In this document: positions 1,081-37,576 of the stretch, one piece after another | Numbering within the stretch: the first letter of the stretch is position 1 | Layout of the letters: each line of letters begins with the position of its first letter | Source: a virus | IMG/VR virus record: IMGVR_UViG_3300009414_000001 | Span: 1-64,000 of that record | Reading direction: 5' to 3' (one strand) | DNA: 64,000 nucleotides | Program-made: the position numbers and the translations under genes | Notes under the pieces: model-generated | What the model saw: only the letters and a program-made list of their open reading frames with translations | The model's database searches: none | Told to the model about the DNA's origin: nothing

Positions 1081-1089
1081 TTTATTACC

Positions 1090-4422: not shown

Positions 4423-4424
4423 TT

Positions 4425-5503: not shown

Positions 5504-5506
5504 TGG

Positions 5507-5992
5507 TTATTCTGCCCAGCCGTAAGTTATTGTAATAGACGGCTTAACAAGTGCTGCTGTGTCATCAGTAGAGCCATCAAAGGCATCTGACGTCAATAAG
5601 CAGTCTTCTAAGTTACGAACTAAAGCTTCTGGTGACTCACCTTCTGTCGACTCTGGCGCGGCCTCCATGGTGCAGTTGACCTTCTCAGCTCTTTCGATAA
5701 TACCACGAAGGGCGCTGAGTAAGTCGCCTCTTACGTTTTCAACAGCAGTAACAACAATCTCACCACTGTTTTGAAGCATACCGTATTCTGGAATACCCAC
5801 ACCACCATGACCTTTTTCGTCAATAACTTCACGTTGCGTTTTAGGCCATTGAGCAGTGCGGAACATTGCCGTTAAACCTTCATAACCAGCGATAGTGAAC
5901 TTAAATTCATTACTTTTTAGTTTTGTGCCGATTGCCTTTTCTGAGTTATACAGCCTTTTAACAAAGCCTTTATTACCTTCGGTAGCAGCCAT
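5507..5992 (-). CDS. bplB: Major tail tube protein (P1 BplB/TubB)
   Basis: GNK.F.K..Y, S.EF..T.AG.E, NSGEI.V..VE, STDDTAA.V.PS.TI.Y.W match P1 BplB. Confidence 0.85.
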   Translation of the reverse strand: MAATEGNKGFVKRLYNSEKAIGTKLKSNEFKFTIAGYEGLTAMFRTAQWPKTQREVIDEKGHGGVGIPEYGMLQNSGEIVVTAVENVRGDLLSALRGIIERAEKVNCTMEAAPESTEGESPEALVRNLEDCLLTSDAFDGSTDDTAALVKPSITITYGWAE

Positions 5993-6003
5993 TTTCTTTA
6001 CCT

Positions 6004-6606
6004 TTAATTAAATGTTGATTGTATGCGCGAGCGATTGATCACGTTTTTCGCGGTTAACGTTAATGTGACCGTGTTTGATAAAAAGTAGCCTTCATCGGTT
6101 TTGGATGCGTCAAGCTCAGAGCTAACACTCTCAATAACAATATCGGTGTATAGGTTTGTTCTACCGATGTTTAACGTTATCGATTGTGGTGTTCTACCAC
6201 CGACAAAATTTTCATTCAGCTCAGGGCTAGCCATGCGCTCCAATGCCATTATCGCGTTGTTGACTTCATTCTTAGGATCACTAGATGCCTTAAAAACCAT
6301 CACTACGTTAAATGTCATCGGGGCATTACCTGACCAGACTTGCTTACTGTTAAAGCTTGAAACGCTCGTTAATCCAGCGTTATTCTCACCTTGCGTAAGT
6401 GTCTGAACACCGCCAGCAACTCGACTTGCATTCTGACCAGCACTATCGCCCTCAAAAGGACTGTCCCAGTTAGATTGCAAGTCTTTGCTTGAGCCTTCAC
6501 CCAAATAGCCAATAACGGTAGTGACGTCACCTTCAATCTGTTGCTGCACAGAAACCTTTAACGCTTCTGAGATGCTGTTATCGTTGATAACGCCATACCG
6601 TGCCAT
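6004..6606 (-). CDS. pmgG: Baseplate/tube initiator protein (P1 PmgG)
   Basis: NW.SPF.G, NS.QVW.G..P.TF, SPEL...GGR.P...TLNIGR, GYFL.NTV match P1 PmgG. Confidence 0.85.
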   Translation of the reverse strand: MARYGVINDNSISEALKVSVQQQIEGDVTTVIGYLGEGSSKDLQSNWDSPFEGDSAGQNASRVAGGVQTLTQGENNAGLTSVSSFNSKQVWSGNAPMTFNVVMVFKASSDPKNEVNNAIMALERMASPELNENFVGGRTPQSITLNIGRTNLYTDIVIESVSSELDASKTDEGYFLSNTVTLTLTAKNVINRSRIQSTFN

Positions 6607-6609
6607 TTT

Positions 6610-7311
6610 CTATAAGCCTCTTGATTTACGAAGTCGCATAGACTTTTTACGGTTCAACTTCGCGCCAGCTTTATGAGCGCTTCGACGGGCTTTTTTAAGG
6701 CCAGCACGTTGAGCACTAGACATACGGCGCTTTTTAGGGCGTTTTTTAACTAGTTTGACCGTACCGTTACGAATAACCTTTTGCACAGCTGCAAGCATTA
6801 GCTCGCCGCCAGACATAAAGTTGATCATAAGCTCTTCGCTCGCGTCTTCATCGCTTGCTTTTGGTAGCTTTTCAGAGAGTGAGAAAGCGATTAACTCGCC
6901 TTTATCGTCACTTTCATCATCAATGAATGCAGACACATCTGCTTCACCAGCACCAAAACTAACAAGTGCATCAGCCATAAGGCCGATCACATCATTAAAG
7001 TGAGCTTCTTCACCGTCTTGGATTTCGCCATCATCATCGAGATCAGCAAGGCCGATCGCCAACTCTTCAAACTCACCAAAAGAGTTATCGCCATTATGAA
7101 TCCATTCAAGAACAACTGACGCAGCTTGTAAGCGGTATTGCTTAACGGCGTAATCTTCTGACGAAGACATCTCATCTTCTGTAGCAGAAGCAAGCATTAA
7201 GGCTTCTTCTGCTGCTGCTTTTACTTCCGCTTCATCTTTACTAATCTGCTCAGCAGTCTTAGGTAGGATGATTGGATTTGCACCAAATGAACTTTGTGTA
7301 AATAATGTCAT
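6610..7311 (-). CDS. P1 gp21-like protein (acidic body, very basic C-terminus; probable head core protein)
   Basis: KVIRNG.VKL.KKR..K.R...AQ...LKKARR.AH...AKL.RKKSM.LRK.RGL matches the P1 gp21 C-terminus; carries MLAS motifs. Confidence 0.8.
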   Translation of the reverse strand: MTLFTQSSFGANPIILPKTAEQISKDEAEVKAAAEEALMLASATEDEMSSSEDYAVKQYRLQAASVVLEWIHNGDNSFGEFEELAIGLADLDDDGEIQDGEEAHFNDVIGLMADALVSFGAGEADVSAFIDDESDDKGELIAFSLSEKLPKASDEDASEELMINFMSGGELMLAAVQKVIRNGTVKLVKKRPKKRRMSSAQRAGLKKARRSAHKAGAKLNRKKSMRLRKSRGL

Positions 7312-7323
7312 TTAGATATCCCC

Positions 7324-8868
7324 TTATTTAATAAGTACAGGCTCGCCTTTCGTGCGGCGGTTAGTACCCGTTACACATAAGCCCCAACGACAAGTCCAAA
7401 GATCGAACTCAGTTTGTTTTACTTCAAACCAGAAAGGTTCAACACCGTCATCATCAGGATTGCGTGGTTTAACAAGCGCGCCCGAAGTAACAAACGACTC
7501 ACCGATTGTGTTAAGTAATCGAGATAAGCCTTTTTTGGTGATGCCATCTGGCTTGTGGCGTAATGCATTAGCACCAGCATGAAACTGCTTGCTAAACTCA
7601 TCACAGACAGAGCCTACGTGCTGGAATCGCAAGTAATCACGCTTACCCCACAGAGTTAAGGCGTCATCAATAAATAAGCGTCCGTTATCAACGTTAATTT
7701 TATTAATGCGAACATCAACCATTGCGCTGTAATCGGGGATACCTACACCTTTTACTTGAATTAAATCAGCACGTTGAATCGTCGCCAAATCAACGCCAGC
7801 AGGAGAGTAATGCACACCCACCGTAGCACCTGTTGTAATGTCACGACCTTTTGCTTTTGCGGCAAAGGCAGAGCCAGACAAACCCCAAATAGCACGACCA
7901 CCGTAATAGGGATCTTTTGCAGTGTATGGGAAGTGGTATAGCGCCATATGGTAGTTGTTGATACCTAATGCTGGCGCTGCTAATAATGCAGCTGCATAGG
8001 TAATCGACGGCACCAAATCGGCAAAACTATCGATTAGGCGATCAGTGGAGTAATCTGCCAACTTAGCTAGGTAAGTGGCGTCATACATGCCCATCGCAAC
8101 ATAAGCAGTTAAGTACTCCATTGAATAATGCAATACATCAAGCGCTTTAATCATATCGGAAGCGTCAATTGCGCCACCAGCAACGGGCTTAGTGAATGCT
8201 TTATTTAAGTCTTGAGCTTCTGCAAAAGTAGCATCAGGACGTAAAGCAACATTGATAACTGAGCTGCGATTAACAAGTGTTTCTATGAACATGTTAACGC
8301 CACCATCATCAACAGCTTCAACATCAAGGCTTACAACCCAATCTTCAAGCTCAACAGCGCCATTAATACCATCTTCCGTTACTTTGATGGCAATAGTGGA
8401 ATCTGTATCATTTTTAACGATATCAATAGTACGGACGCGATCAGAGTCGCCATCAACCACATAAAAAGCAGCCCACGCCGTTGAGATAGCAACGACCTGA
8501 GTACCATATGAATCAGTTGATACCGTGGTAGGTTGTGCTTCACCTGTATTATGTGCCTGAATAACTGGGAACGAGGCATCAGAAGCGACAACACGCACAA
8601 CACGACCATCACTCGCTGAAACTGACTCGCCCAACTGGCGTAAACAATCAGCATCAGTACCGACACTAGGGTGCCATGGCTTACCTAACACTGACTGCCA
8701 GTTTTCTTCATTGACGCTTAAGACTTCAAAAGGTTTACCTTTTGGCGAAACTACGACTGCACCAAATCGATTGTTAGCACCTAAACCACCAGCAGTTAAT
8801 GTACCGCTAGAGTTAATGGCATTAATAACCGTTTGAGCTACTTGAGACAAGCTAGAAGGTATCTGCAT
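7324..8868 (-). CDS. Contractile tail sheath protein (P1 gp22)
   Basis: 514 aa; GKPF.V, VVRVV, HYSPAG, IDDALT, YLRFQHV, H.PDGIT motifs; synteny. Confidence 0.85.
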   Translation of the reverse strand: MQIPSSLSQVAQTVINAINSSGTLTAGGLGANNRFGAVVVSPKGKPFEVLSVNEENWQSVLGKPWHPSVGTDADCLRQLGESVSASDGRVVRVVASDASFPVIQAHNTGEAQPTTVSTDSYGTQVVAISTAWAAFYVVDGDSDRVRTIDIVKNDTDSTIAIKVTEDGINGAVELEDWVVSLDVEAVDDGGVNMFIETLVNRSSVINVALRPDATFAEAQDLNKAFTKPVAGGAIDASDMIKALDVLHYSMEYLTAYVAMGMYDATYLAKLADYSTDRLIDSFADLVPSITYAAALLAAPALGINNYHMALYHFPYTAKDPYYGGRAIWGLSGSAFAAKAKGRDITTGATVGVHYSPAGVDLATIQRADLIQVKGVGIPDYSAMVDVRINKINVDNGRLFIDDALTLWGKRDYLRFQHVGSVCDEFSKQFHAGANALRHKPDGITKKGLSRLLNTIGESFVTSGALVKPRNPDDDGVEPFWFEVKQTEFDLWTCRWGLCVTGTNRRTKGEPVLIK

Positions 8869-19823: not shown

Positions 19824-19857
19824 GGTACTTGTTATTTCACGGATAATGGCAATTAGA
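19824..19857. promoter_or_regulatory. 34-bp palindrome family member (TACTTG-N18-CAATTAG)
   Basis: GGTACTTG-TTATTTCACGGATAATGG-CAATTAGA. Confidence 0.5.
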
Positions 19858-25856: not shown

Positions 25857-26099
25857 TCAGGCATAAAACAGCCCCTTAATTGCTTGATAAACAGACCGCC
25901 CATTAAAGATCCGTCTAATAAAATATGACCTCGCTAACGATATCAGCGTATAACACAATCCAAGGCTCAAGTTTTGGCCTGCACTAATAGACCACCCGAA
26001 CATAGGAAATAAAATAGCGTTAGCTGTTAGAGTAATAGAAAGACCTATTAATATGTTTGTGAGCGACTCAAGTAGTGAGTCTTTTTTTGTTTGATTCAT
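25857..26099 (-). CDS. Small two-TM conserved phage membrane protein
   Basis: MNQTKK.SL.ES.TN..IG...FPMFG......NL.....YT..S..RSY..RR.FN; start taken at 26099. Confidence 0.7.
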   Translation of the reverse strand: MNQTKKDSLLESLTNILIGLSITLTANAILFPMFGWSISAGQNLSLGLCYTLISLARSYFIRRIFNGRSVYQAIKGLFYA

Positions 26100-26100
26100 G

Positions 26101-26532
26101 TTATTGAGTCTGCTCATAGATTGTGTCCGATTTATCACAAATAAAGCCATGGCAAACATACCCTGTAGCCTCATCGTATGGCGTTCTTTTGCATTTCTTC
26201 TGCCTGTACTGATAATGCTCATAGCCACAGCTAAAAGCGTAAGGGTTAGCATTGTAATCAGCATAATATTGATCTTGCCCGTTGCGTGCCGCATTAGCGC
26301 CAGCTGCAAAGCCACTCAAGAAGTCTTCTCGCGTGTTGATCATCAACGTTTCACCCAAGCTACCCTCTACAACCAAAATAGCACCCAGTTTAACTAACCT
26401 AGTTACCGTTTCACTGTTAAAAGAACCATGATAAACATCTTTATTCACATCATAAATAACAGGAGTGTCGCCGTGCCCCGTTGCTTCCATCAAAGAAACA
26501 AATAACTCTCGCTGTTTTCTTGGTATTGGCAT
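26101..26532 (-). CDS. Hypothetical phage protein
   Basis: ORF from MPIPRKQ. Confidence 0.55.
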   Translation of the reverse strand: MPIPRKQRELFVSLMEATGHGDTPVIYDVNKDVYHGSFNSETVTRLVKLGAILVVEGSLGETLMINTREDFLSGFAAGANAARNGQDQYYADYNANPYAFSCGYEHYQYRQKKCKRTPYDEATGYVCHGFICDKSDTIYEQTQ

Positions 26533-26614
26533 GATTAAAAACCTTAGTAAATTAAATCGTACAATTAACATTTAACATCTTAGTCAATTTGTTAGGACTA
26601 GAATGTTAATTTTT

Positions 26615-27316
26615 TTAAAGAGAAAAGCCCAGCTTTTTAGGTTTTAGCGATTCATCATTTACGCCTTTTTTGACGTCAATGTGCTTACTATCAATAAGCC
26701 CTTTCATTAGCGCGCCGTCTTGCCTCGTTTTTCGCTTATCATCTTTAAAATCATTTCCTGCAAAATCGCACGAAAGAGCATATCGATTATTTAGAGCGAC
26801 AAGAGCTGTATTATTGCTTGATTCTGTTACCGAATCAACTTTATAGCTATTAGTGAACGAACAGGTAAAACCCATCTTTAGGCCATTTCGATAACTATTC
26901 ATATACTTTGCAGGAGCACCGCCAATTAACAGGCGATGCTGCTTTGCTTTTTTGATGATTTGCCCTCTAGCAACTTCGTACACATAACGAGAAAATTCTA
27001 TGTCGCTCGGCTCACCAACATAATAAAACACCCCTTTAAGCGCACTGTAGCCTTGACGGTACGTGACACAAACACCTAAAACCTTAGCTATACTAGTTGC
27101 CATTTGCGCATCACTGTAACTTATTTTTATACCTGAATGCTTAAACTCAAGCCGCTTGATGCTGGCACTTCCTATATCACCCATATTTAAACGATATTCC
27201 GTCATGTAGGCCATGGCCTTAGTGTTGGCGCTATTTCTTTCGTGTGGGTTCGTGGTTGATGCAGCTAAAGCGAGCAATTTTGCTATTTTTCCCTTTATGC
27301 GTTCCACTTTACTCAA
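26615..27316 (-). CDS. DUF2786-domain protein
   Basis: KIAKLLALA.S.TNPHE...A..KA..YM..Y. Confidence 0.8.
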   Translation of the reverse strand: MSKVERIKGKIAKLLALAASTTNPHERNSANTKAMAYMTEYRLNMGDIGSASIKRLEFKHSGIKISYSDAQMATSIAKVLGVCVTYRQGYSALKGVFYYVGEPSDIEFSRYVYEVARGQIIKKAKQHRLLIGGAPAKYMNSYRNGLKMGFTCSFTNSYKVDSVTESSNNTALVALNNRYALSCDFAGNDFKDDKRKTRQDGALMKGLIDSKHIDVKKGVNDESLKPKKLGFSL

Positions 27317-27582
27317 AGCAAATACCTCTGTAAATTTAATATATAAACCAATTAATTTTGATTATGTTACAGAATCAAATCGAGGTCAACTTTTTAACAC
27401 ACAAAAGAAACACCTTAAAAATTCAATTAAACTTCCTTTAACTACCAACAAGGACACCTGAAACACACACAAGACCCACACAGAACCCACCTTTAGCACA
27501 CGAAAACAAAGAACAAACAAACAACTTGCGTACAGGCTGATTGCGTTACACAATCAACTAAAATCAACTAGAGTAAGCACCT

Positions 27583-27837
27583 ATGAGCAATACAGAAGGA
27601 AAAAAGATTGGCGGATTCAGAGAGGGATCAGGAGGAAAACCAAAGCACAAAGCAGGCAAAACGACAACAAAACGAATCCCTGAAAAATACATCGATGCAG
27701 TTTCATCGTTAATAAATCATCTTGAGAGTAATGCAGAAATAAACAAAAAAGGTGAAACAAAGACCAGCGAACCACTAAGAATAGTTTCAGCATTTGAGCA
27801 AGAGCAAGAGATTACTTTTACAATAAAAGCTGTTTAG
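27583..27837 (+). CDS. Small DNA-binding-like protein (GG.R.G.G.K motif)
   Basis: GGFREGSGGKPK...T.T.RIP. Confidence 0.55.
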   Translation: MSNTEGKKIGGFREGSGGKPKHKAGKTTTKRIPEKYIDAVSSLINHLESNAEINKKGETKTSEPLRIVSAFEQEQEITFTIKAV

Positions 27838-27873
27838 AAAAATCAGCAACCTTATAAAACTCGACTATTATTT

Positions 27874-27899
27874 AAAACCATCAATTAAGATGGTTTTTT
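27874..27899 (+). terminator. Rho-independent terminator
   Basis: AAAACCATC-AATTAA-GATGGTTTTTT. Confidence 0.7.
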
Positions 27900-28041
27900 G
27901 TTTCATACCAGCCAACAAGCAAAACAGCAACAACTTATCTTTAAAATCAAATAAAAAACCTACTTGCTAAATATACCATTTATAGAAATAGCGACAAGTA
28001 GAGCGTTAGCAAATAAATTAAACAACGCTTTTGCTGGCCTC

Positions 28042-28075
28042 TCTAATTGCCATAACATAGGATATGGCAATTAGA
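28042..28075. repeat. Perfect 13-8-13 inverted repeat (loxP-like architecture)
   Basis: TCTAATTGCCATA-ACATAGGA-TATGGCAATTAGA. Confidence 0.85.
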
Positions 28076-28183
28076 TACAATTCACTAAGTCGACAAGTCA
28101 CAAGCAAAACCACCAAAACACGAATAAACCCATTCCTTAAAATCTGCGTAACTTCACCTTAAAAACAAAATAATATCGACACA

Positions 28184-28226
28184 GCTACTTGCTTCTTTTC
28201 GGAATATAACAAGTAGCGTTTATACT
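28184..28226 (+). promoter_or_regulatory. 34-bp palindrome overlapping a candidate sigma70 promoter for the peptide gene
   Basis: GCTACTTG-N18-CAAGTAGC (28184-28217); TTCGGA-N17-TATACT (28198-28226). Confidence 0.45.
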
Positions 28227-28314
28227 CGTCAATAAGCAGACGATCACCCAATGGATCGCTTCTTGCTTAGATAGCTTTAATTATTATTTTTACAACTAAA
28301 AACTAAGGGAAATT

Positions 28315-28725
28315 ATGTTAAATTATATATTCTTATCAATCATGTTGGCTTTTAACCCAGCAGCAGAATCAGCAACAAGCAATCTTGATCAAGGCACGCC
28401 ATCAGTTCAAGGTAGCAAAACAAAGCGTGTTGATTTTAATTTACTTGGCAGCAAAACAAAGCGTGTTGACTTCAACGTGCTCGGCAGTAAGTCAAAGCGA
28501 ATAGCTTACGGTAGTAAAAGCAAGCGCATCGCTTACGGTAGCAAATCAAAGCGTATTGATTTTAATCTGTTAGGTAGTAAGTCGAAGCGAATCGACTTTA
28601 ACTCATACGGCAGCAAGTCAAAACGAATTGACTTCAATATGCTTGGCAGCAAATCAAAACGCATCGACTTTAATATGCTTGGTAGTAAATCAAAACGCAT
28701 TAATGCTGATTCCGTCAAAATATAA
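28315..28725 (+). CDS. Multi-repeat peptide precursor (hydrophobic leader plus 9x GSK[S/T]KR units)
   Basis: AAGGGA RBS; 136 aa; repeats conserved as protein but diverged at synonymous positions; own terminator. Confidence 0.85.
   Translation: MLNYIFLSIMLAFNPAAESATSNLDQGTPSVQGSKTKRVDFNLLGSKTKRVDFNVLGSKSKRIAYGSKSKRIAYGSKSKRIDFNLLGSKSKRIDFNSYGSKSKRIDFNMLGSKSKRIDFNMLGSKSKRINADSVKI
28411..28698 (+). repeat. Degenerate 36/27-bp coding repeats
   Basis: Nine GGYAGYAAR-(ACA/TCA/AGC/TCG)-AARCGN starts. Confidence 0.9.
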
Positions 28726-28748
28726 ACACGACTAAATCAATAATATAG

Positions 28749-28775
28749 AAAGCGGCGATTTATTGCCGCTTTTTT
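28749..28775 (+). terminator. Rho-independent terminator after the peptide gene
   Basis: AAGCGGCGAT-TT-ATTGCCGCTTTTTT. Confidence 0.8.
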
Positions 28776-28831
28776 GTGTGTTGCGCAAAATTGTTGTAAA
28801 GTAGCTCCCAATGAGATGGAGCTAATTATCA

Positions 28832-29569
28832 ATGCTAAATTTAAGCAAACATTTAGAAGTTGAATTAAACACAGAAGGCGTTGATTACTTTGTTGGTGAC
28901 GTACATGGTCACTACGACGAATTAATGAACGAAATGAAGCGTGTGGGCTTCAAGGAAAGTACAGATCGCCTTTTCTTTCTTGGCGACTTATGCAATCGAG
29001 GCGATGATTCAATCAAATGCCTAGACTTGCTTACCGAAAAACATAAAACACTTACAGCTTACTCATTGGAAGGAAACCATGAGAATCTAATAAGTGAATT
29101 GCCCTACAACTCAAAAATCGAAGAACAATTAAAGCGAAGCAGCACAGGCGGTCAATGGGCAGTTGATTGTTATCACTTCGAACCCTCTGTATTTAGAAGG
29201 CTAACAGGTATCATAAAGGCTAAGTGCTTTAACGCTATAACTGTCAAGACATCACTCGGCAGTATTGGCTTAGTTCACGCTCAAGCACCTGATGACTGGG
29301 CTGTTTTCAGTCACAGTAAAATACCTAATGACGTACTGTTTAACGGCCTATGGAGTCACGAAAAATACTCTAAGCCTGCAAGCGAACTAAACCCCATCAA
29401 AAACATCGACCTCACTATTAGTGGACACACTAATTCAAGCGAAATTGTAGTCAAACAAAACATGATTTGGATTGACACTTTACGTAATGGCGGAAGGATA
29501 ACAATAATAAGCGCCGCAGAAGCTTTTGAGTTGATGAAAACTGAGAGAGCAAATGAACGAACAAGATAA
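28832..29569 (+). CDS. Ser/Thr protein phosphatase (PPP metallophosphoesterase; lambda NinI / PphA / P1 Ppp-like)
   Basis: GDVHG, GDLCNRG, GNHE, VHA, GHT, IDT motifs. Confidence 0.9.
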   Translation: MLNLSKHLEVELNTEGVDYFVGDVHGHYDELMNEMKRVGFKESTDRLFFLGDLCNRGDDSIKCLDLLTEKHKTLTAYSLEGNHENLISELPYNSKIEEQLKRSSTGGQWAVDCYHFEPSVFRRLTGIIKAKCFNAITVKTSLGSIGLVHAQAPDDWAVFSHSKIPNDVLFNGLWSHEKYSKPASELNPIKNIDLTISGHTNSSEIVVKQNMIWIDTLRNGGRITIISAAEAFELMKTERANERTR

Positions 29570-30194
29570 ACACAGGTTAACATTCCTTATCCCTCGCTGG
29601 AACGATGGCGACAGAACCGCCATCAATGAAGTAGCTAAAATAGTCGAGCCATGGGTTAGAGGTTTCGCTTCGCTTGCTATCGATAAAGAGCACGAAAGTG
29701 TAATGGTTGCCAGTAAAAAGATACCCACAATATTAGGCATGTGGGACGTTAACGAGCAAACACAAGAAGTAATGGTAAGGTTTGCTATTCATCAAAATTC
29801 AGTGACAAAATTAACCACTCCTTTAGCTCTTTACCAGCTATTGAGGTTTATGACCTACAGGATTTTAAAAAACAAAATTGAGGCTATAACAAAGCAGTCT
29901 GAGAATAGAGTCTCGGTCAGCGCAATGGATCCCGAAGAGCAAGATTTAATGGAAGGAGCGGCAAACAAGCAAAATGCCTCTGATATGGTTACGCTGCTAG
30001 AGCACCTTGAACATATCAATATAAAGCACCCTGACATGGCGATGGCTTACGCGATGCATCACATCGACGGTCATACCACCCAAGAAATATCTGACATAAC
30101 AGGGCAGACAGTAAGAAGTATTCAGCGTAATATAAAGCTAGTGAATACAGAGTTATACGCGCACTTAATGACTATAAAAACGGAAGCTTCGTAA
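29553..30194 (+). CDS. ECF-type RNA polymerase sigma factor, kinase-associated class (EcfK/EcfP-like)
   Basis: N-terminal LT.L..RW..GD..A..E....V; M..RIL in region 2; region-4 HTH G.TTQEISDITG..VRSIQR; TAATG coupling to the kinase. Confidence 0.8.
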   Translation: MNEQDKHRLTFLIPRWNDGDRTAINEVAKIVEPWVRGFASLAIDKEHESVMVASKKIPTILGMWDVNEQTQEVMVRFAIHQNSVTKLTTPLALYQLLRFMTYRILKNKIEAITKQSENRVSVSAMDPEEQDLMEGAANKQNASDMVTLLEHLEHINIKHPDMAMAYAMHHIDGHTTQEISDITGQTVRSIQRNIKLVNTELYAHLMTIKTEAS

Positions 30195-33100
30195 TGGATT
30201 TAGACGTTCTTGATATTGTAGAGAAAGCACTTTTAGTTGATGAACCAGCAGAGAGATTGAAACTAATCTCTGAGAGCTGCGGCAATAATCAAGAGCAAAT
30301 CGATTCAATAGTTTTCTTAATAGATGTTGTTAGCGAAGAAATAGAGCAACCAGAGCTTACCGCTGATGACGTCAAGGAAGCTTACGAAGTTCCAAGTGAC
30401 GAATTATCTGCCTTTGATATCCTAGCTATAGTCACAGAAGACGGAATCACCACCCAAGACCAAGAAAAGCTAGTTATAGAGCTTTGTGCTGGTGATGAAA
30501 GCAAAGTAAAGGAAGTTAATCGCCGTCTTGAAATGCTCTCTGATGATATCGATGAAGCGATCAACGAAAACATAATACAAGAAAGCTACAAGTCACTAAA
30601 AAACGGCGGCATCAACGACCCTAAAGCCCTCGAAGGCTTAATTGTTAACGACTATCGATTAGATTCCTTTATAGATAAAGGCTCTTACGGTTTTGTCTAT
30701 AAAGGCACGCGAATCGATGGCAAAATGAAAAAACAACAAGTTGCCATAAAAGTCATTAACCCGTCCATCAAAAACATTCTTCCCTTTGATTTAATTGACC
30801 GTGAAGCTGACATCATGGCGATGCTAAATCACAAATACATTGTTAATGTGTTGCATGTAGGTAGCGTTAATTACAATGGTATGTTTTTAGATTGCCATAT
30901 AACAGAGTTTGTTAATGGCTGTAATATATTCGAAGCCTTTCCTTTATCACTAGACAATCTGATAGCTAAAATTAAGTGTGTTGCTAGGGTAGCTAAAGCA
31001 TTAGAGCACTCGCATAAAAACAAGCTTATACACGCTGATATCAAGCCTGAAAACATCCTTGTTCGTTACTCTGAGAAGACTGAAAAAGAAAAGGAAATGT
31101 TTCTTAGGATCATGTGTGAGACTGATGTGGGCAATACTGGCCTAGTCTCTCATGATTTAGAACCTGTACTTTTAGATTTCAGCATATCGCCAACATCTAA
31201 CGCCCAAGGTACATCAAAAGCTGATGCGATAAAGTTTGCCAACAACTACAGATCACCTTACAGCTCTCCTGAATATCTACAAGGAGAGTCTTTATCTGCT
31301 CGCTCGGACGTTTATTCGCTCGGCGTATTACTGCATGCATTGATTATCAACAAAGAGCCATGCGAAAGAGGGCAGTTTGAAGAGTGGCCTAGCGACATAT
31401 TGCTAGGTAAAAAAGAATGGGATTACAACTGGTGTCTTGGTGACTTAGACGCCATCATCAAAAAAGCATGCGCTAAAAACCCTGATGACCGATACAACAA
31501 TGTTACTGAATTCAAAAATGACCTCTATAAGTTTATAGAGTTCAAGCCAGTTTCAGCGAAATCTGAGTCCTTGCCAGCGAAAGTATACAAGAAAACCCGA
31601 AGAAACCCTTTAATGATGACGGGCTTAGCCATGGGGTTTGTGTCGTTCCTATACGCTGCCTTTTACTCTATCGATGCAATAGAGCAGAATGCTCAATATC
31701 GTCATAACCTAGCGCTGTCGGAAGAATATTCCACTATGCTAAGCGAAGTACTCAAGCCTGTTGTTTCTCGAAAAGCTTTAAGTAAAGATTTTTTTGAAGA
31801 CAGCTTAAGTAGTTGGAACAAGTTTGATAACGCAACAACCGAAAAGCGCGTTTACTTCTTATCGTCATTAGCTGAGATGGCAACTAATGCACAGCATTTT
31901 GATATCGCGTCTGAAATGTACGAAAAGCTATTAAAGTCCTTTGAAGATGAATTAAACGAAAAGGACAGAATAAAGCACACATCAAAGTACATTGTCGCAT
32001 TAAACAAGAGTGGGCAGTCTGAAAAAAGTCAGCGAATAGCTGCGCCTATGTTCGATTCGATGGTTGGTCATAATTATGATGATCCCGTTATTGTCGGCGC
32101 TTTCTTGGAAATGTTTGACAGTGCCAGTCGATACATATACGAAAGCTACGAAGAAAGCGTGCCACTATTGGAAATACTTAGACAAATAGAGCAAAAGCCA
32201 CAGTTGTTTTTAGCGCCAGAGCATAGATCACTACTTCATTACCACACTGCAAAAGAGCGTTATTATTCTTTCTTTGGCGATTACGCCAGCACAAGTATCG
32301 GTCAGAGTGAAGACTTCTATCAGGAAGAAATGGTGCCAGTATATAAGGACACCAGAGTTGATATAGACAAAGCCCTCTACTTGCTTAAAGGAACTCGTCA
32401 AGAGGAAGAGTATAGGCATCAATATTTAAGCTTAAGCGCTAGAATTGAATACGAACTAAGAAACACTAAAGCCGCCAAAAAACTGAGCAATAGAGCTATT
32501 AGATACGCCAAGGAAAACTGGGGAGACAGCCCGATAACCCAGCGAGCTTATGTAATAGATTTCACGGTTAATCGCCACGTTGATTTAAATAAAATGCTTT
32601 CATCTGCGAGAAACGCCGATAGAATGCAAAGCCGCAGAGGTGTTAGTCGTGATGACTTGATCACATCGAGCTATTACCTTGCTGATGCATTACTGATGAG
32701 TGGAAAGCTAGATAAAGACAAGGCATTAATACTCAGTCTAATTAATAAATACACTCCTGAACAGCTTGATTATGAAGGCTTGGACTCAATGGAAGCGATG
32801 ATAATTGATTATCTTGGCACTACTGAGTTTGATAAAAGTGACGCTGACAATAAGATACTTGCAAGCTATGCGCTGGCGGCAGCTGAGCGCATGAAAACAA
32901 TTGAACCTAACGAATTCGAGCAAGAGAAGTATAATTTTGCTCGATTAATTAACCTGTATTTTAACGACGAGCTAAAAGGTAGTGATATTTTCAACTACTT
33001 TAATAAAACAAAGAAGTTTCCGTCAAACCTACAAGCAACCAAATACACCTACTTAGCCATTTTATCTATTGACCTTAAAGAGCATGAAGTAGCTAACAAC

Positions 33101-33340
33101 CTCGTAAGTTTTGCCAGACAGGCGATGGTATACACAGAATTTGAGCGCACAAACTCAGTCAACCTGATGAGCATGTTTGCCTCAATCACTAAAGTTTATA
33201 TCGCTATTGGCGACATTGACGCCGCAAGAAACACCTTCAACAACGCTGCAACAATCTACAGAACGCATGAAGACGCACTTTCTGGAAGTTATTTTGCAAA
33301 GCAACTCACTGAATTAAATGATAAATTAATATTTTCATAA
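30194..33340 (+). CDS. Membrane Hanks-type Ser/Thr kinase with a large TPR-like extracytoplasmic domain
   Basis: GSYGFVY, VAIK, HADIKPENIL, DFS, YSSPE, SDVYSLG, DL.AI..KA....P..RY; TM PLMMTGLAMGFVSFLYAAFYSI; about 550 aa helical C-terminus. Confidence 0.9.
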   Translation: MDLDVLDIVEKALLVDEPAERLKLISESCGNNQEQIDSIVFLIDVVSEEIEQPELTADDVKEAYEVPSDELSAFDILAIVTEDGITTQDQEKLVIELCAGDESKVKEVNRRLEMLSDDIDEAINENIIQESYKSLKNGGINDPKALEGLIVNDYRLDSFIDKGSYGFVYKGTRIDGKMKKQQVAIKVINPSIKNILPFDLIDREADIMAMLNHKYIVNVLHVGSVNYNGMFLDCHITEFVNGCNIFEAFPLSLDNLIAKIKCVARVAKALEHSHKNKLIHADIKPENILVRYSEKTEKEKEMFLRIMCETDVGNTGLVSHDLEPVLLDFSISPTSNAQGTSKADAIKFANNYRSPYSSPEYLQGESLSARSDVYSLGVLLHALIINKEPCERGQFEEWPSDILLGKKEWDYNWCLGDLDAIIKKACAKNPDDRYNNVTEFKNDLYKFIEFKPVSAKSESLPAKVYKKTRRNPLMMTGLAMGFVSFLYAAFYSIDAIEQNAQYRHNLALSEEYSTMLSEVLKPVVSRKALSKDFFEDSLSSWNKFDNATTEKRVYFLSSLAEMATNAQHFDIASEMYEKLLKSFEDELNEKDRIKHTSKYIVALNKSGQSEKSQRIAAPMFDSMVGHNYDDPVIVGAFLEMFDSASRYIYESYEESVPLLEILRQIEQKPQLFLAPEHRSLLHYHTAKERYYSFFGDYASTSIGQSEDFYQEEMVPVYKDTRVDIDKALYLLKGTRQEEEYRHQYLSLSARIEYELRNTKAAKKLSNRAIRYAKENWGDSPITQRAYVIDFTVNRHVDLNKMLSSARNADRMQSRRGVSRDDLITSSYYLADALLMSGKLDKDKALILSLINKYTPEQLDYEGLDSMEAMIIDYLGTTEFDKSDADNKILASYALAAAERMKTIEPNEFEQEKYNFARLINLYFNDELKGSDIFNYFNKTKKFPSNLQATKYTYLAILSIDLKEHEVANNLVSFARQAMVYTEFERTNSVNLMSMFASITKVYIAIGDIDAARNTFNNAATIYRTHEDALSGSYFAKQLTELNDKLIFS

Positions 33341-33400
33341 AATATTTTGTAACCTTTGTCGTTTTTTCCGTTTTCGATTGTACAGTGATTAAATTGTACG

Positions 33401-33452
33401 CTTTTACTATTATCAATCCCCCACGAAAATTAAGGGAAGATAATAGTAAAGG
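33401..33452. repeat. Long inverted repeat downstream of the kinase (candidate sRNA, attenuator or terminator)
   Basis: CTTTTACTATTATC...GATAATAGTAAAGG. Confidence 0.6.
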
Positions 33453-33480
33453 GACGCTTTAACGAAAAATAATGCATATT

Positions 33481-33540
33481 CCTACTTGCCAAATGCTGGT
33501 AATTAGCAATTAGACGAGATATGATTCTGTTACAGAATCA
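33481..33540. promoter_or_regulatory. Two adjacent operator-like palindromes upstream of the recombinase
   Basis: CCTACTTG-N18-CAATTAGA (33481-33514) and TGATTCTGT-T-ACAGAATCA (33522-33540). Confidence 0.6.
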
Positions 33541-33576
33541 AATTTAGTTAATTGCAGCAAGCAAAAAGGAAGTTGT

Positions 33577-34476
33577 ATGGATATCTTAAATGACGTTAAA
33601 GACTGGTTAAATTCAGAGTTCCCATCGCAAGAAGAGATCAAAGAAACAATAGACAGGCTGTCTATGAATGCTGGCTCAACTAAGAACCCAGCTGAACGCT
33701 TTGAATTTAAAGATGCAATCGAGTTACTTAAAAAGGAATTAGGCAAAGAGCCACAGACCTTAAGCAGTAATTCAAAGAATGGCGTTGCTGCCTTCCCTTC
33801 AAGTATTAGAGAGGAAAGCCCAGCCCCCATCAAAGCAAAACCTTTAAAAGCAAACGGAAGCAGAGCAGCCAGTCCGATTAAAGATAAAACTGACATCAAG
33901 ATGATTGCGAAAATGATGAGCAAGTGGAACTTTCAACGTGAAGCTCATTTATTAATTATCGGATGTAATACAGCTCTACGTTATTCAGATTTGCGCATGA
34001 TGAGATTCGATCAGGTAATTCATTCAGCGAAAAATGACGGCACAGCATACATAGAGCAGATAGTTGAAAAGAAAACTGGCAAAGCAAAACGTTTAATATT
34101 GAACAGAACAGCCATGAAGTACATCACAGCGCAATATGAGTCGTTAAAAGGATTAGGAATAGAAAACCCTATCTATGTATTTCAAGGCACAGGAAACCGA
34201 ACGAAGGCAGAGCCAAAACCTGTATCAAGAAGTCATGTAAACCAAGTCTTCAAACATGTTAGAGAAGATATGGATCTAGATTTTAGATTGTCTACTCACA
34301 CGATGAGAAAGACTTTTGGATACCATGCGTATGACAATGGTAAAGGTATCGATATAAAGATACTACAGAAGCTATTTAATCACGCATCAGAACAAGACAC
34401 CTTTATTTATATTGGTGTTAACGCTCAGCGAGTACAGGAAGCTTATATAACAGCTGAGATAGAGATAGATTTGTAG
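33577..34476 (+). CDS. Tyrosine recombinase (phage integrase family)
   Basis: TALRYSD (R), EKKTGK (K), THTMRKTFGY (HxxR), FNH....T..YIG (H/Y). Confidence 0.9.
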   Translation: MDILNDVKDWLNSEFPSQEEIKETIDRLSMNAGSTKNPAERFEFKDAIELLKKELGKEPQTLSSNSKNGVAAFPSSIREESPAPIKAKPLKANGSRAASPIKDKTDIKMIAKMMSKWNFQREAHLLIIGCNTALRYSDLRMMRFDQVIHSAKNDGTAYIEQIVEKKTGKAKRLILNRTAMKYITAQYESLKGLGIENPIYVFQGTGNRTKAEPKPVSRSHVNQVFKHVREDMDLDFRLSTHTMRKTFGYHAYDNGKGIDIKILQKLFNHASEQDTFIYIGVNAQRVQEAYITAEIEIDL

Positions 34477-34558
34477 AATTCATGACTCCTAATTGTGGGC
34501 GAATGAAAACTATGTATTATATGAATCACACAGCCATAAACACGATTAGAAGGAATTT

Positions 34559-34795
34559 TTGAAGATGCACACCAAGTTAATTTCACTACTGTCAGAATTA
34601 GAAAAACAAGTAAACACAGATAAAGTAAAGGCCATCATCGAAGAGATGATCCCGTTATCGGTAAGCTATCAAATGATAGAGCTAAATATAGAAGATGCGA
34701 TCTCTAATTTTGAAGAGTCTCACAAAAGAACAGCTACCGACGAAGAAAAGGAGTCTATCAGATTCGGCTTTATGTGTGGGATTAGCTGCGAATGA
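34559..34795 (+). CDS. Small hypothetical protein upstream of c1
   Basis: 78 aa, mildly acidic, AAGGA RBS. Confidence 0.5.
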   Translation: MKMHTKLISLLSELEKQVNTDKVKAIIEEMIPLSVSYQMIELNIEDAISNFEESHKRTATDEEKESIRFGFMCGISCE

Positions 34796-35100
34796 CCTCA
34801 TCGATTAAAGTGATATTGTCTTGCATGCTTGGGCTAATTGGTGGCCTCTGCTTGTTTGATATTATCGGAACGCCCGTAGTTAAATTTAATGAAATGGTAG
34901 CCATCATAGTCGGACTGTCTATTGTCGGCGTTATATCCAACACTAAAGCTTTATTGTTCGTCCTTACTTGCGCTACATACTCATTCGTTACCTCTATCCA
35001 TTTCTCCCTACAAGCAGGAGCAACCCCTATACTCGTTGCTGTTCTCACTTTTGTTATGCTTGTATTTCTCATCGACCAAATAGATAAAAAACTAAACTAA
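34792..35100 (+). CDS. Small multi-TM membrane protein
   Basis: 3-4 hydrophobic helices; ATGA overlap. Confidence 0.55.
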   Translation: MTSSIKVILSCMLGLIGGLCLFDIIGTPVVKFNEMVAIIVGLSIVGVISNTKALLFVLTCATYSFVTSIHFSLQAGATPILVAVLTFVMLVFLIDQIDKKLN

Positions 35101-35105
35101 TCCCC

Positions 35106-35130
35106 AAAAAGCCGCGAAAGCGGTTTTTTT
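35106..35130 (+). terminator. Rho-independent terminator
   Basis: GCCGC-GAAA-GCGGTTTTTTT. Confidence 0.85.
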
Positions 35131-35284
35131 ATGATTAATATTCCATAACAACAACGCATTAGACCTGTCATAACTAGCATTTACCTTGCATATTTGGTAA
35201 ATTTGGCAAATAATTAGATCACTACTTCTACGTTAGTAGATGCTGTTAGTACGGAAACTAATAAAACAATAAAGGGCGATGTGA

Positions 35285-36043
35285 ATGGAGAATAAAATTT
35301 TAGATAACAATATAGCCAAAGCCTACCACGAATTCGAGGCGTTTAGAGCTGAATTCGTTACGAAGTGGTGCGCTCGCTCTAGCTTTAAAGAGAATCGTAA
35401 GGACGGAGATATTAGACCCGTTGTTTTACTACGAACTAAAGAATTAGTTAGTGAGTTAATGGCAGATATCGAAATAGATAAAAGATTACTCGCTATATTG
35501 ACATCTGAGCCTGAAAGATTCTCACCCAAGGCCAGTAAATTTAAACCGATCTTAATGCCCGAAAAAGGCGTTACGAAGGTTTCTATTAGTCAGCCGCCAG
35601 CGACAAACTCTCGTAAGAAAACAAAAACGGAAGTTTTGAGATCATTAGGTCGCTTAGTGGATAGACTTGATCACACAGTTTTAACCACTGGCACACAGCA
35701 TTCAATTGATGCTTTAGCGATTGCGACAAAGGAATATCAATCAATTAAAGATGATTCCGAAGAGGTTTATCGTGTTCGTACTTACGGATATACAGACACT
35801 TGTGTTTACCTAGCACAACATGGCACCACTAAAGATAAGGTAAGAATTCCGATTACTGGAATGTTTATTATTGATCTGGAAGGTGCTTGCTCTGTTGCCG
35901 TTCAAGAAAAGAACGACCCAAAAGCGGCGATAAAATCATATCCTGTCACGCCAATTGCTTGCTCAGCTATCCTAAAGGGAATGCTGTACCGTCAAAGTGA
36001 TATTGACGCACATAACGACAAATCAAAGAAAAAGGCCATCTAA
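35285..36043 (+). CDS. c1: C1 primary repressor (P1 C1 homolog)
   Basis: YHEFEAFRAEF, DGDIRPVVLL, GVTKVS, YRVRTYGYTDT, LYRQSDID align with recalled P1 C1 (YQEFVSFRDLF, DGRPVRPVVVL, GVRKVT, FRMRVHGFSET, IYRLADIE); adjacent to the end of pacB as in P1. Confidence 0.8.
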   Translation: MENKILDNNIAKAYHEFEAFRAEFVTKWCARSSFKENRKDGDIRPVVLLRTKELVSELMADIEIDKRLLAILTSEPERFSPKASKFKPILMPEKGVTKVSISQPPATNSRKKTKTEVLRSLGRLVDRLDHTVLTTGTQHSIDALAIATKEYQSIKDDSEEVYRVRTYGYTDTCVYLAQHGTTKDKVRIPITGMFIIDLEGACSVAVQEKNDPKAAIKSYPVTPIACSAILKGMLYRQSDIDAHNDKSKKKAI

Positions 36044-36051
36044 GCGCCATT

Positions 36052-36073
36052 GTGCCACTTTTTCGAGTGGCAC
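36052..36073. terminator. Hairpin between convergent c1 and pacB
   Basis: GTGCCACT-TTTTCG-AGTGGCAC. Confidence 0.6.
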
Positions 36074-36079
36074 CACCCT

Positions 36080-37576
36080 TTATTCATTTAACCAACTTTC
36101 TGCCTCTTCTAGCGCTCTTTTAGATGATTCTGGTACTTCTACGCTTGCTGGAACATATGGAACAAGCATTGCCATACAATAAGTATCAGATCTATCAGGC
36201 GATGATATGCCTTTTTTCTTCATCTCAGGCTTGGGCATCATAGCGTAAACGCCTTTGTCACTTAATGTGTAAGGCAGCTTAGATGCTTGCTCTTTGGTTT
36301 TATCGCTAGCATCAAGCCTACAGCGACCTTGCTGAATAGCATACTTGAATCTAAAGTGGCCTTGCGTGCGTTTGTGGTTAAAACGCTTCTTGTCGCTGGT
36401 GTTATGGCAGGAATCACCCCACTTCATCGCAATAACATCAACCTTAAACTCTTCCTCTAATCGCTGGGCAACCGTGCTACCTACACCATTAGCATCGACA
36501 GCAACCGTTATGTTTGGATAGATATCGCTATAACACTCTGAATAGATTATTTTAGCCATTGCATTAGATTTTATGCTGACTGGGTACTCTGTTAACTTAA
36601 CGGGCACTAAACGCCTGTTAAAATCATCTCCTGATATCTTTGCGATGAGAATAACTGACTTATCTCGACCATCACCGATATCAACCAGCGCAACATAACC
36701 CCAATCATTAGCAAGCTGTGGGTTTGCTCTCTGCGCTTTGGTACATTCTTGTATTGATAATAAATCGCCAGCGACTTGATCAGGAAATAAACCTAACACC
36801 CTTATTCGGTATTCTTCTGAATCTCGACCGCCAAACTCTCGCGCTTTTTCTAGTAAAAATTGCTTTGTGACAAAGCGACTCAGTTCACTGTTAAAAACTA
36901 ATGGCGTAAAGCCTGTGCTGTCGCCAGCTCTTTTCGTGTAGGTTGTTTGTGACTTGTAAAACACACCACTTAAGCGCGTAGGCTGAGACAATAAGAGCAT
37001 CCTATTGTCATCCTCTGTCATTGCGCCCGTCATAACATTAAAGGCTTTATCTGATACGCCAGAAGCCTCGTCGACAATATAGATGAAATGAGCATTATGC
37101 TCACCAGCAAGCGCCTCTTCTTGGCCTTGTTTACAGCTTTTTATGCGGCAATTCCATACGCCTTTATGTCCACGTATGAATAATTCCGTTTCAGTAAGTA
37201 TTATGTGATGGGCGAGCCATGGGTGACGTTTTTTGACTTCTGATATAACTATTCTTATGTTCTTCCAAACAGCCGCCCTAACCTGATCAACACTGTTAGC
37301 GACTAAATAGATCTGTGAGTTGGGATAACACAGCATGAATATCAGCACTATCATCGCTGAACTAAATGACTTACCCGTACCGTGACCCGAAGAGATGGAA
37401 ACTCGACTACCTGTTTGCGACACCTCATTAAGCATTATCATTTGCTGGGCGCTTGGGTGAAATTTAGGGGGTACTAAATAAAGCCACGCTTTCAGCCAAT
37501 CAAACCTAAAGCGCCTTACAAACTTTAAATACTGAGGTAATTTCGTTATAAGCTGCTTTTTCTTTCGCTTACTCAA
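36080..37576 (-). CDS. pacB: Terminase large subunit (P1 PacB)
   Basis: SGHGTGKS Walker A, EEALAGEH, IVDEASGV Walker B, SQPTR.SG, D.G.GRDKSV, SPDR.D. Confidence 0.95.
   Translation of the reverse strand: MSKRKKKQLITKLPQYLKFVRRFRFDWLKAWLYLVPPKFHPSAQQMIMLNEVSQTGSRVSISSGHGTGKSFSSAMIVLIFMLCYPNSQIYLVANSVDQVRAAVWKNIRIVISEVKKRHPWLAHHIILTETELFIRGHKGVWNCRIKSCKQGQEEALAGEHNAHFIYIVDEASGVSDKAFNVMTGAMTEDDNRMLLLSQPTRLSGVFYKSQTTYTKRAGDSTGFTPLVFNSELSRFVTKQFLLEKAREFGGRDSEEYRIRVLGLFPDQVAGDLLSIQECTKAQRANPQLANDWGYVALVDIGDGRDKSVILIAKISGDDFNRRLVPVKLTEYPVSIKSNAMAKIIYSECYSDIYPNITVAVDANGVGSTVAQRLEEEFKVDVIAMKWGDSCHNTSDKKRFNHKRTQGHFRFKYAIQQGRCRLDASDKTKEQASKLPYTLSDKGVYAMMPKPEMKKKGISSPDRSDTYCMAMLVPYVPASVEVPESSKRALEEAESWLNE

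Follow-up and report, generated by a model that had tools for sequence, protein, structure and literature searches.

One-component receptors, among them AimR, VqmA(Phage), and LuxR-type transcription factors, allow temperate phages to sense small molecules and peptides. To our knowledge, kinase-activated extracytoplasmic function (ECF) sigma factors have been studied in only a few cases, for which the ligand is not known. Here, we describe a cassette of four genes, encoding a small cationic repeat protein, a protein phosphatase, a divergent ECF sigma factor, and a receptor Ser/Thr kinase, which spans positions 28315-33340 of a 64,000-nt stretch of viral DNA (IMGVR_UViG_3300009414_000001, positions 1 to 64,000; hereafter, the window). 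The cassette, which is best explained as a self-contained, horizontally mobile signalling unit of temperate phage-plasmids of marine Gammaproteobacteria, represents a previously undescribed variant of kinase-coupled ECF signalling.

The described systems with which it has to be compared are the ECF43 sigma factors and their kinases and the sensory modules of N15-like phage-plasmids. The hallmark of ECF43 is the loss of the acidic DxxDxxQE motif of region 2.2, where an uncharged QTTA sequence with a conserved phospho-Thr is found instead (PMC13147305, PMC8999054). EcfP/PknT of Vibrio parahaemolyticus mediates polymyxin response and resistance, PknT and PknS respond to polymyxin and amoebal predation with no dedicated peptide, and the periplasmic tetratricopeptide repeat (TPR) domain of Xanthomonas citri PknS appears to hold the kinase off (PMC8999054, PMC13147305). 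In N15-like phage-plasmids, the interval between telN and repA carries SOS-independent lysis modules, namely those consisting of a transcription factor and a small open reading frame (TF-smORF) and VqmA(Phage)-Qtip (Silpe et al. 2023, PMC10432266).

The following features make up the cassette of the window.

28315-28725, plus strand: small repeat protein of 136 aa, recognized by its open reading frame (ORF), Shine-Dalgarno (SD) sequence, and nine repeat units.
28747-28774 with a following T-run (feature 28747-28780), plus strand: strong intrinsic terminator with a 12-bp stem containing 5 GC pairs.
28832-29569, plus strand: PPP-family Ser/Thr phosphatase of 245 aa (PF00149, Metallophos, E 6e-14; phrog_246; NF008516 and NF007425).
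29553-30194, plus strand: divergent ECF sigma factor of 213 aa (PF07638, E 2.5e-5; TIGR02999, E 5.7e-7, the latter below the NCBIfam cut-off).
30194-33340, plus strand: receptor Ser/Thr kinase of 1048 aa (Pkinase, E 1.7e-24 at residues 156-434).

When 1.84 billion representative proteins were searched exhaustively with HMMER, the C-terminal ectodomain of the kinase proved to have only 10 relatives, i.e. nine kinases of 934-1045 aa with the match at the same C-terminal position and one 423-aa fragment. From pattern scans, DNA was obtained for five independent relative loci and, in addition, for L006, a fragment resembling L008. The loci and the repeat units of their small ORFs are as follows.

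L002: IMGVR_UViG_2893759370_000002, a 57,582-bp element with direct terminal repeats (DTR), source named 'Endozoicomonas sp. G2_1'; small ORF with N-terminus MLSAVMALFFSVSDVNA... and three GKKGKIR(I/V) units.
L003: IMG/VR, 55.9 kb, N15-like; small ORF with N-terminus MLSTLLAAVLSLTPATVDA... and three GSSRGKVRI units.
L005: metagenome contig, N15-like; small ORF with three GAKRGKVR(V/I) units.
L007: metagenome-assembled genome (MAG) of Alteromonadaceae, N15-like; small ORF with four G(S/T)HSGKI(R/K)I units after a degenerate GHIGGIRI.
L008: Alteromonadaceae MAG; small ORF with two degenerate units.

The order small ORF, phosphatase, sigma factor, and kinase is the same in all five (5/5) independent relative loci and, with the window, in six loci. 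The carriers belong to at least three element types, i.e. the P1-like element of the window, the N15-like elements (L003, L005, and L007), and the DTR element (L002), in addition to L008. In all six loci, the small ORF encodes a hydrophobic N-terminus, two to nine cationic units, and a C-terminus of the form [IV][KR][IV]; the ORFs were likened by their build and position. The comparison covers the recovered loci, and those encoding P0003 and P0004 (the latter on an 87-kb JGI contig), the nearest relatives of the kinase, are not among them. The small ORF products are net cationic, except for the degenerate copy of L008 (6 K+R and 6 D+E). At all loci, the kinase contains a single transmembrane (TM) segment at the same place and a homologous ectodomain. 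Amino acid sequence identities between the window and the other loci are 38-46% for the phosphatase, 20-24% for the sigma factor, and 20-22% for the ectodomain, and because these pairwise identities are low, the divergence of the cassette family appears to be old. The preliminary description of this DNA, made from its letters, had reported four co-oriented genes, a separate terminator, and nine cationic repeats, all of which were recovered at their positions, and had treated the genes as one unit, a view now borne out by their common order on different mobile elements. It had also proposed a search for small repeat ORFs beside related kinases; one was present at every recovered locus, so that the refuting observation it had named, homologous kinase/ECF loci devoid of such ORFs, was not made.

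The family was found in 3/401 sampled genomes of the family to which the MAGs belong, and it is almost confined to mobile elements and very rare. Searches of GenBank phages and PLSDB plasmids by megablast and tblastn yielded only generic kinase-domain matches of <30% identity and none to the ectodomain, and the kinase, recombinase, and pacB, each used singly to scan IMG/VR, gave no match. A word-based homologue search with the ectodomain and the sigma factor returned the query record alone; with the repeat protein, it returned no matches and missed the protein itself as well.

The small ORF of the window is preceded by the SD sequence AAGGGA, 5 nt ahead of the ATG. In its product, nine cationic GSK(S/T)KR(V/I) units come after a hydrophobic N-terminus (MLNYIFLSIMLAFNPAAES), and the last residues are VKI. 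The nine GSK(S/T)KR units are trailed by (V/I)DFNxx in six copies, IAY in two, and INADSVKI in the final one, and the mature protein contains 28 K+R versus 8 D+E. Differences between the copies number 37, 10, and 97 at codon positions 1, 2, and 3, respectively, and 129 of the 157 differing core codons are synonymous. Because the differences are mainly synonymous and located at third codon positions, the repeat is old and kept at the protein level, rather than a product of chance or recent slippage. Repeat copies in L002, L003, and L005 differ almost only at third codon positions, and those in L007 show few differences (3/3/6 over the three positions). The repeat protein looks exported, and Sec export of the predicted product is plausible; the hydrophobic N-termini and AxA-like sites of the small ORFs were identified by eye. 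No leads for the small protein were obtained from the ESM Atlas. The predicted terminator at 28747-28780 separates the repeat-protein transcript from the downstream genes.

The phosphatase is assigned, by both motifs and profiles, to the lambda-PP/NinI/PrpA-PrpB type. It matches phrog_246 (NinI-like) with an E-value of 4.5e-42 as well as NF008516 and NF007425 (PrpA/PrpB-like), and its metal motifs are GDVHG at residue 22, GDLCNRG at 51 (with Asn for the second Asp), and GNHE at 81. The phosphatase and sigma genes overlap by 17 nt and the sigma and kinase genes by 1 nt; because of these overlaps, the three genes are probably translationally coupled.

The sigma factor can be classified, from profile matches and its structural model, as a very divergent two-domain (sigma2 and sigma4) ECF sigma factor of the PF07638/TIGR02999 class. 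The orthologue in L003 matches PF07638 over its full length (E 5.6e-10). In a Foldseek search with the AlphaFold2 model (predicted local distance difference test, pLDDT, 74.8), the top eight matches, save that at rank 4, were solved ECF sigma factors, with weak E-values of ~1e-2; the neighbours include sigmaE, CnrH, SigW, SigK, and AlgU. The family alignment revealed a family-specific insertion of ~15 aa ahead of region 2.2, followed by Thr59, which does not vary within the family and may act as a phospho-acceptor. Region 2.2 of the window sigma factor reads D-V-N-E-Q-T-Q-E, with all three acidic positions retained. In the relatives, it reads S..D..QE, G..D..QT, D..D..QT, or C..D..QT, i.e. the central Asp is kept, and the first Asp and final Glu are often replaced. 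No match to an anti-sigma family was found by Pfam among the four ORFs, each of which gave its own domain only.

Several copies of the sigma gene in Alteromonadaceae MAGs or metagenomes are split into fragments of 44-69 aa (L008:7579-8002, L006:1012-1435, and L020:820-1161). The kinase, phosphatase, and small ORF are intact in L008 and L006; in L020, the kinase is intact and the phosphatase is absent. Extra kinase copies were also found on short contigs of two MAGs, with two to three paralogues each, among which L020 (in G002) is the copy with readable upstream DNA.

The kinase domain contains VAIK at residue 183, HADIKPEN at 280 (non-RD), and DFS at 328, and Lys186, Asp282, Asn287, and Asp328 are invariant in nine kinase family members. 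The single hydrophobic segment lies at approximately residues 473-496, with KKTRR just before it, and the predicted topology is N-in/C-out with a periplasmic TPR solenoid. The C-terminal 548 aa (501-1048) form an all-helical solenoid in the AlphaFold2 model (pLDDT 86.8; predicted template modelling score, pTM, 0.84), in line with the single-pass kinase with a helical extracytoplasmic domain of ~550 aa in the preliminary description. By VIA-align, the ectodomain aligns with MalT domain III (Z 18.2), RapH (17.9), RapI (17.1), phi105 Rap with peptide (16.3), PlcR (14.1), and NprR (13.6), and pLS20 Rap is also among the best neighbours; helical repeats attain Z ~13-14 by chance, and these scores are modestly above that background. 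The best Foldseek matches to the ectodomain were generic solenoids, and the ESM Atlas leads were generic TPR proteins with scores below 0.9. Pfam matches in the kinase were limited to Pkinase, PK_Tyr_Ser-Thr, and ABC1, with no helix-turn-helix (HTH) domain, and the receptor, as modelled, is not a member of the RRNPP family. Residues 1-150 (30194-30640) contain two copies of a ~45-aa module ending with (S/L)C(G/A)(N/G)(N/D)..., of the LCxGD type, and the shorter family members (934-961 aa) contain one copy. This N-terminal module may be a docking site for the sigma factor.

Similar to the ECF43 systems EcfP/PknT and EcfK/PknS, the cassette combines a PF07638/TIGR02999 sigma factor with an adjacent TM Hanks kinase, the genes overlapping in the cassette, and lacks an anti-sigma factor. 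The kinase resembles PknS in possessing an N-terminal extension, a cytoplasmic kinase domain, one TM segment, and a periplasmic TPR region. A phosphatase reset has been proposed for these systems, and the cassette encodes a phosphatase. However, the cassette is phage-borne, whereas the ECF43 systems are chromosomal; the window sigma factor keeps an acidic DxxExxQE motif with no QTTA and has the ~15-aa insertion and Thr59 upstream of region 2.2; the kinase is non-RD, with a much larger ectodomain (~550 aa) that has only the 10 relatives; and the small repeat protein and the lambda-PP-type phosphatase are fixed members of the cassette. The cassette thus resembles a kinase-coupled ECF system but, as judged from region 2.2, is not a typical ECF43 system and is not filed as one. 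The phosphatase shares the GDxHG, GDxxxRG, and GNHE motifs of PPP metallophosphatases with lambda protein phosphatase/NinI and Escherichia coli PrpA/PrpB, but its gene does not lie in a nin region or the chromosome and is instead probably coupled in translation to those of a sigma factor and a kinase.

The cassette also shares features with two kinds of phage sensory system. The TF-smORF modules (PMC10432266) likewise combine a regulator and small ORFs in a variable sensory locus, and L003, L005, and L007 share their position between telN and repA. In contrast to these modules, the regulator of the cassette is a sigma factor, probably gated by a receptor kinase and a phosphatase, not a one-component transcription factor, and its small ORFs are co-oriented, not divergent, one of them looking exported. 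With arbitrium (AimP/AimR) and other RRNPP systems, the cassette has in common a phage-borne small ORF with a signal-like N-terminus beside a TPR sensor, in a plausible lysis-lysogeny context. However, its sensor is predicted to be periplasmic and is fused to a kinase, unlike the cytoplasmic HTH-TPR receptors, and Opp-type import would be unneeded. The hosts are Gram-negative, the putative precursor consists of multiple tandem repeat units, and there is no sequence homology to AimR or AimP.

The parent record of the window, a virus contig of 89,820 bp, carries direct terminal repeats and probably originates from a marine metagenome, the only sequencing run in which the stretch was found; no RNA data set containing it was listed. 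Its tail sheath shares 37% identity with P1 gp22, and its pacB shares 45-47% identity with those of Aeromonas and Vibrio phage-plasmids. On the basis of the sheath, pacA/pacB, and a C1 homologue, the host element is classified as a P1-like phage-plasmid, although a distant one. The window contains no telN-repA locus, and the cassette instead adjoins the following two genes.

33577-34476, plus strand: tyrosine recombinase (PF00589, E 2e-17), downstream of the cassette.
35285-36043, plus strand: homologue of the P1 C1 immunity repressor (BLASTP, 29% identity over 248 aa, E 2e-14), convergent with pacB and pacA.

The pacB and pacA genes, which were assigned by PHROGs, are positioned beyond the c1 homologue. 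The placement of the block upstream of, and co-oriented with, a recombinase-to-c1 region, as given in the preliminary description, was therefore correct.

L003, L005, and L007 are, according to their gene content, N15-like linear phage-plasmids, in which the cassette sits between convergent telN and repA genes. The protelomerase ahead of the cassette (651-653 aa) contains all four TelK/ResT domains, and the convergent repA gene encodes a product of 1294 aa in L003, which was scored as phrog_4913, and of 1138 aa in L007. The L003 contig corresponds to row 162 of the 274 loci catalogued previously, and the word 'kinase' does not occur in the main text of that report (PMC10432266). On two unrelated phage-plasmid backbones, the cassette is located beside lysis-lysogeny controls, i.e. 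telN-repA in the N15-like elements and the recombinase and c1 genes in the window.

In L007, positions 1-7946 form a perfect inverted repeat of 3973 nt with zero spacer (centre 3973/3974), 190 bp upstream of telN, which mirrors telN, the small ORF, the phosphatase gene, and the sigma gene. This structure is apparently an assembly read round the covalently closed hairpin telomere of a linear prophage. In the part of L002 that was read, an integrase, ParA, SSB, a MazE/MazF-like pair, and a resolvase are encoded, and this part does not look P1-like or N15-like. Although L002 comes from a genome named Endozoicomonas sp. G2_1, that genome was drawn as belonging to the same family as the Alteromonadaceae MAG.

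Two candidate promoters, both in conserved non-coding blocks at the edges of the cassette, were identified in the window.

28252-28268, plus strand: candidate promoter for the repeat-protein gene, of the sigma-54 type (GG at 28253-28254 and TTGCT at 28263-28267; GG-N10-GC).
33349-33373, plus strand: candidate ECF-type output promoter, GTAAC-N15-CGTTT, directly after the kinase stop codon.

Sigma-54 promoters show a -24/-12 geometry with GG-N10-GC. In the six-locus alignment of the DNA upstream of the small ORF, TTGCT is the longest invariant run, and the GG located 10 nt before GC is also invariant. The 70 nt upstream of the small ORF are better conserved than coding DNA, with 91% versus 69-70% identity between L003 and L005 and 80% versus 57-59% between L003 and L007. 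The promoter of the repeat-protein gene therefore looks to be of the sigma-54 type, and because the gene has this conserved promoter block of its own, simple autoinduction by the cassette sigma factor is disfavoured. No sigma-54 activator gene was found on the phage records; the host MAGs encode many. The hairpin GCGGCAA..TTGCCGC followed by a T-run is present after the small ORF in L003 and L005, the same terminator hairpin with one or two substitutions and a T-run in L007, L008, and L006, and a hairpin with no T-run in L002. TGnTAnnnT-like sequences, identified by eye ahead of the phosphatase gene, suggest that the enzyme genes probably have their own promoter.

Three other assignments in the region upstream of the small ORF were rejected. 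The sequence ATTGCTCTA was considered as a P1 C1 operator, but the P1 Olpa operator reads ATTGCTCTAATGTATTG; ATTGCTCTA is not enriched in the window (9 occurrences versus 8.4 expected), occurs once per relative locus in intergenic DNA, and is read as the -12 half of the GG-N10-GC element. A sigma-70 promoter, TTGACA-N16-TATGTT, would place the start within the ORF, beyond the conserved SD and ATG, and a 5' hairpin ahead of the SD has two compensatory pairs only and is disrupted in the window.

ECF promoters carry the signature AAC...CGT, usually with a spacer of 16-17 nt. The motif after the kinase gene of the window has a counterpart, GTAAAC-N12-CGTrT, at the same position in L003, L007, and L008 and a near-variant in L005. 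It is the best, albeit weak, candidate for a target of the sigma factor. In the window, the motif is followed by genes for the recombinase, a 78-aa protein, a 102-aa protein, and c1; in L003, L007, and L008, and as the near-variant in L005, it precedes an 89-aa ORF. This ORF, located 3' of the kinase gene (L003:7485-7751, L005:8396-8665, L007:10944-11213, and L008:10995-11264), shows 34-64% identity among the loci, has no Pfam or PHROG match and no clear homologue in the window, and could, by analogy, encode a Qtip-like small protein.

The cassette of the window is flanked by 32-bp palindromes, CTA(C/A)TTGC-N16-GCAA(G/T)TAG, with nine matches (<=3 mismatches) against 3.5 expected. Copies are located at 27960-27991, 28043-28074, 28185-28216, 33482-33513, and 19825-19856, one of them ahead of the recombinase gene. 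The copy at 28185-28216 is perfect and lies ~36 nt upstream of the candidate promoter element and ~70-100 nt from the predicted start site. The palindromes may be operators of a dimeric regulator or enhancer sites. A basic 84-aa ORF (27583-27837) that matches no family lies directly upstream of the palindrome cluster, together with a terminator of its own (27874-27897); in the other loci, this ORF does not belong to the cassette. No Rfam match was found in 26000-36500.

We tentatively prefer a reading, to which we would assign just short of an even chance, in which the kinase, ECF sigma factor, and phosphatase constitute a switch with the repeat protein as its cognate periplasmic partner, providing an SOS-independent input to lysis-lysogeny or maintenance. 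The membrane Hanks kinase would sense a periplasmic signal through its TPR solenoid of ~550 aa, and the most likely signal would be the co-encoded cationic repeat protein. Because of its multi-unit build and the invariant C-terminal tripeptide, this protein may act as a multivalent ligand that clusters receptors or as peptides whose free ...[IV][KR][IV] end enters the TPR groove. The kinase would control the co-translated sigma factor by phosphorylation, and the lambda-PP-type phosphatase would reset it. The sigma factor would then transcribe the adjacent downstream unit, i.e. the 89-aa ORF in the N15-like elements and the recombinase-to-c1 region in the P1-like phage of the window, by which the prophage would gain an SOS-independent lysis-lysogeny or maintenance input. 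Since the repeat gene, with a conserved sigma-54-like promoter and a terminator of its own, forms a transcription unit apart from the enzyme genes, a host activator may determine the ligand supply. The steps that we infer are export, ligand-receptor pairing, sigma phosphorylation, the promoter assignments, and the life-cycle output. Overall, the cassette is probably a new sensory input to the life-cycle decision of the prophage.

Several observations weigh against this scheme. The N-terminus of the small protein lacks a basic n-region, and no gene of the cassette accounts for export or import across the outer membrane. The structural matches of the TPR region are of a generic kind, with LGN (Z 17.3) and APPBP2 (Z 17.2) standing beside the Rap proteins. 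Sigma-54 promoters normally need an upstream activator site; the upstream intergenic DNA of the relatives measures 68-94 nt, and no conserved site was seen in it. At the output side, the AAC-N12/15-CGT spacing is non-canonical (shorter), and the downstream genes differ between the window and its relatives. With its acidic DxxExxQE motif, the window sigma factor may be able to bind core RNA polymerase without phosphorylation, and the broken sigma genes beside intact kinases (L008/L006 and L020) may indicate either other kinase targets or decaying copies. The broken sigma factors and the retained acidic motif are the main observations that the scheme leaves unexplained.

The signalling-circuit interpretation advanced in the preliminary description accordingly holds in part: the conserved unit, the receptor topology, and the position are in its favour, and its link to lysis-lysogeny gains contextual support from the location next to the recombinase and c1 genes and, in the N15-like relatives, at telN-repA (PMC10432266). 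Its suggestion of cell-to-cell counting or kin sensing is the weakest part, the cassette having no outer-membrane export or uptake function, and EcfP-type activation by phosphorylation, which it cited, is not simply transferable to a sigma factor that retains the acidic motif absent in ECF43.

A somewhat unlikely alternative is that the kinase senses another envelope cue, for example cationic peptides of host or foreign origin, damage to the envelope, or superinfection by a phage, with the repeat protein acting as a periplasmic co-sensor or inhibitor (RcsF- or CpxP-like, or a stand-in for an anti-sigma factor) or as an output or effector of the circuit. PknT and PknS respond without a dedicated peptide, and the periplasmic TPR region of PknS seems to restrain its kinase (PMC8999054, PMC13147305). 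In addition, a cationic repeat protein with 28 K+R versus 8 D+E could bind lipopolysaccharide, and the strand-turn periodicity of the units (KIRI-GSHSG in L007) suggests a folded beta-meander over released peptides. However, the presence of the small ORF with the kinase at every recovered locus and its conserved C-terminal tripeptide fit a dedicated partner, although they fit a co-sensor equally well, which makes this alternative only partly separable from the preferred reading, and the small ORF is not preceded by the AAC...CGT motif and is thus unlike a target of the sigma factor. It is unlikely, in our estimation, that the repeat protein serves as a precursor with many copies of a diffusible cationic peptide that lysogens or infected cells would release and the periplasmic TPR kinase of neighbouring cells would read, thereby tuning lysis-lysogeny, a proposal against which the lack of outer-membrane export and import functions speaks directly.

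Alternatively, the cassette could be a lysogenic-conversion module that reprograms envelope-stress or antimicrobial-peptide resistance of the host and has no role in the phage life cycle. The sigma factor class, PF07638/TIGR02999, is that of the kinase-coupled ECF43 sigma factors, among which EcfP/PknT confers polymyxin resistance, and the cassette occupies variable cargo positions of phage-plasmids. We nevertheless regard this explanation as decidedly unlikely: the family is rare and nearly limited to mobile elements (10 in 1.84 billion proteins; 3/401 genomes), the telN-repA and c1-adjacent positions point to phage regulation, and the sole conserved candidate promoter with an ECF signature lies within the element. 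An anti-phage defence or superinfection exclusion system around a Ser/Thr kinase (Stk2, PD-T4-6, MADS Mad6, or BREX PglW-like) is very improbable, even though prophages often carry defence cargo and the kinase domain matches the PADLOC models mad6 (E 3e-35) and PD-T4-6 (E 1e-31) as well as the NCBIfam models MAD6 and PglW, since these matches are limited to the generic kinase domain and are far below the NCBIfam cut-off (96 versus 460 bits for MAD6), the other three cassette proteins gave zero matches to PADLOC models, and we know of no description of Stk2, PD-T4-6, Mad6, or PglW that includes a sensor domain in the periplasm or a sigma factor dedicated to the kinase.

The cassette is compact (~5 kb) and is carried by plasmid-like prophages in loci already shown to control induction, which makes the hypotheses directly testable. 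If the diffusible-peptide reading were true, the cassette would represent the first peptide-based phage-phage communication in Gram-negative bacteria, in both P1-like and N15-like phage-plasmids, and a eukaryote-style chain of ligand, receptor kinase, phosphatase, and transcription factor would replace the RRNPP receptor. If, as we prefer, the cassette is a kinase/sigma/phosphatase switch with the repeat protein as its periplasmic partner, kinase-activated ECF sigma factors would extend to mobile elements, and the repeat protein would be the first candidate cognate ligand for such a kinase. A receptor Ser/Thr kinase with its own sigma factor, phosphatase, and exported repeat protein would then constitute a different signalling architecture for a bacterial virus.

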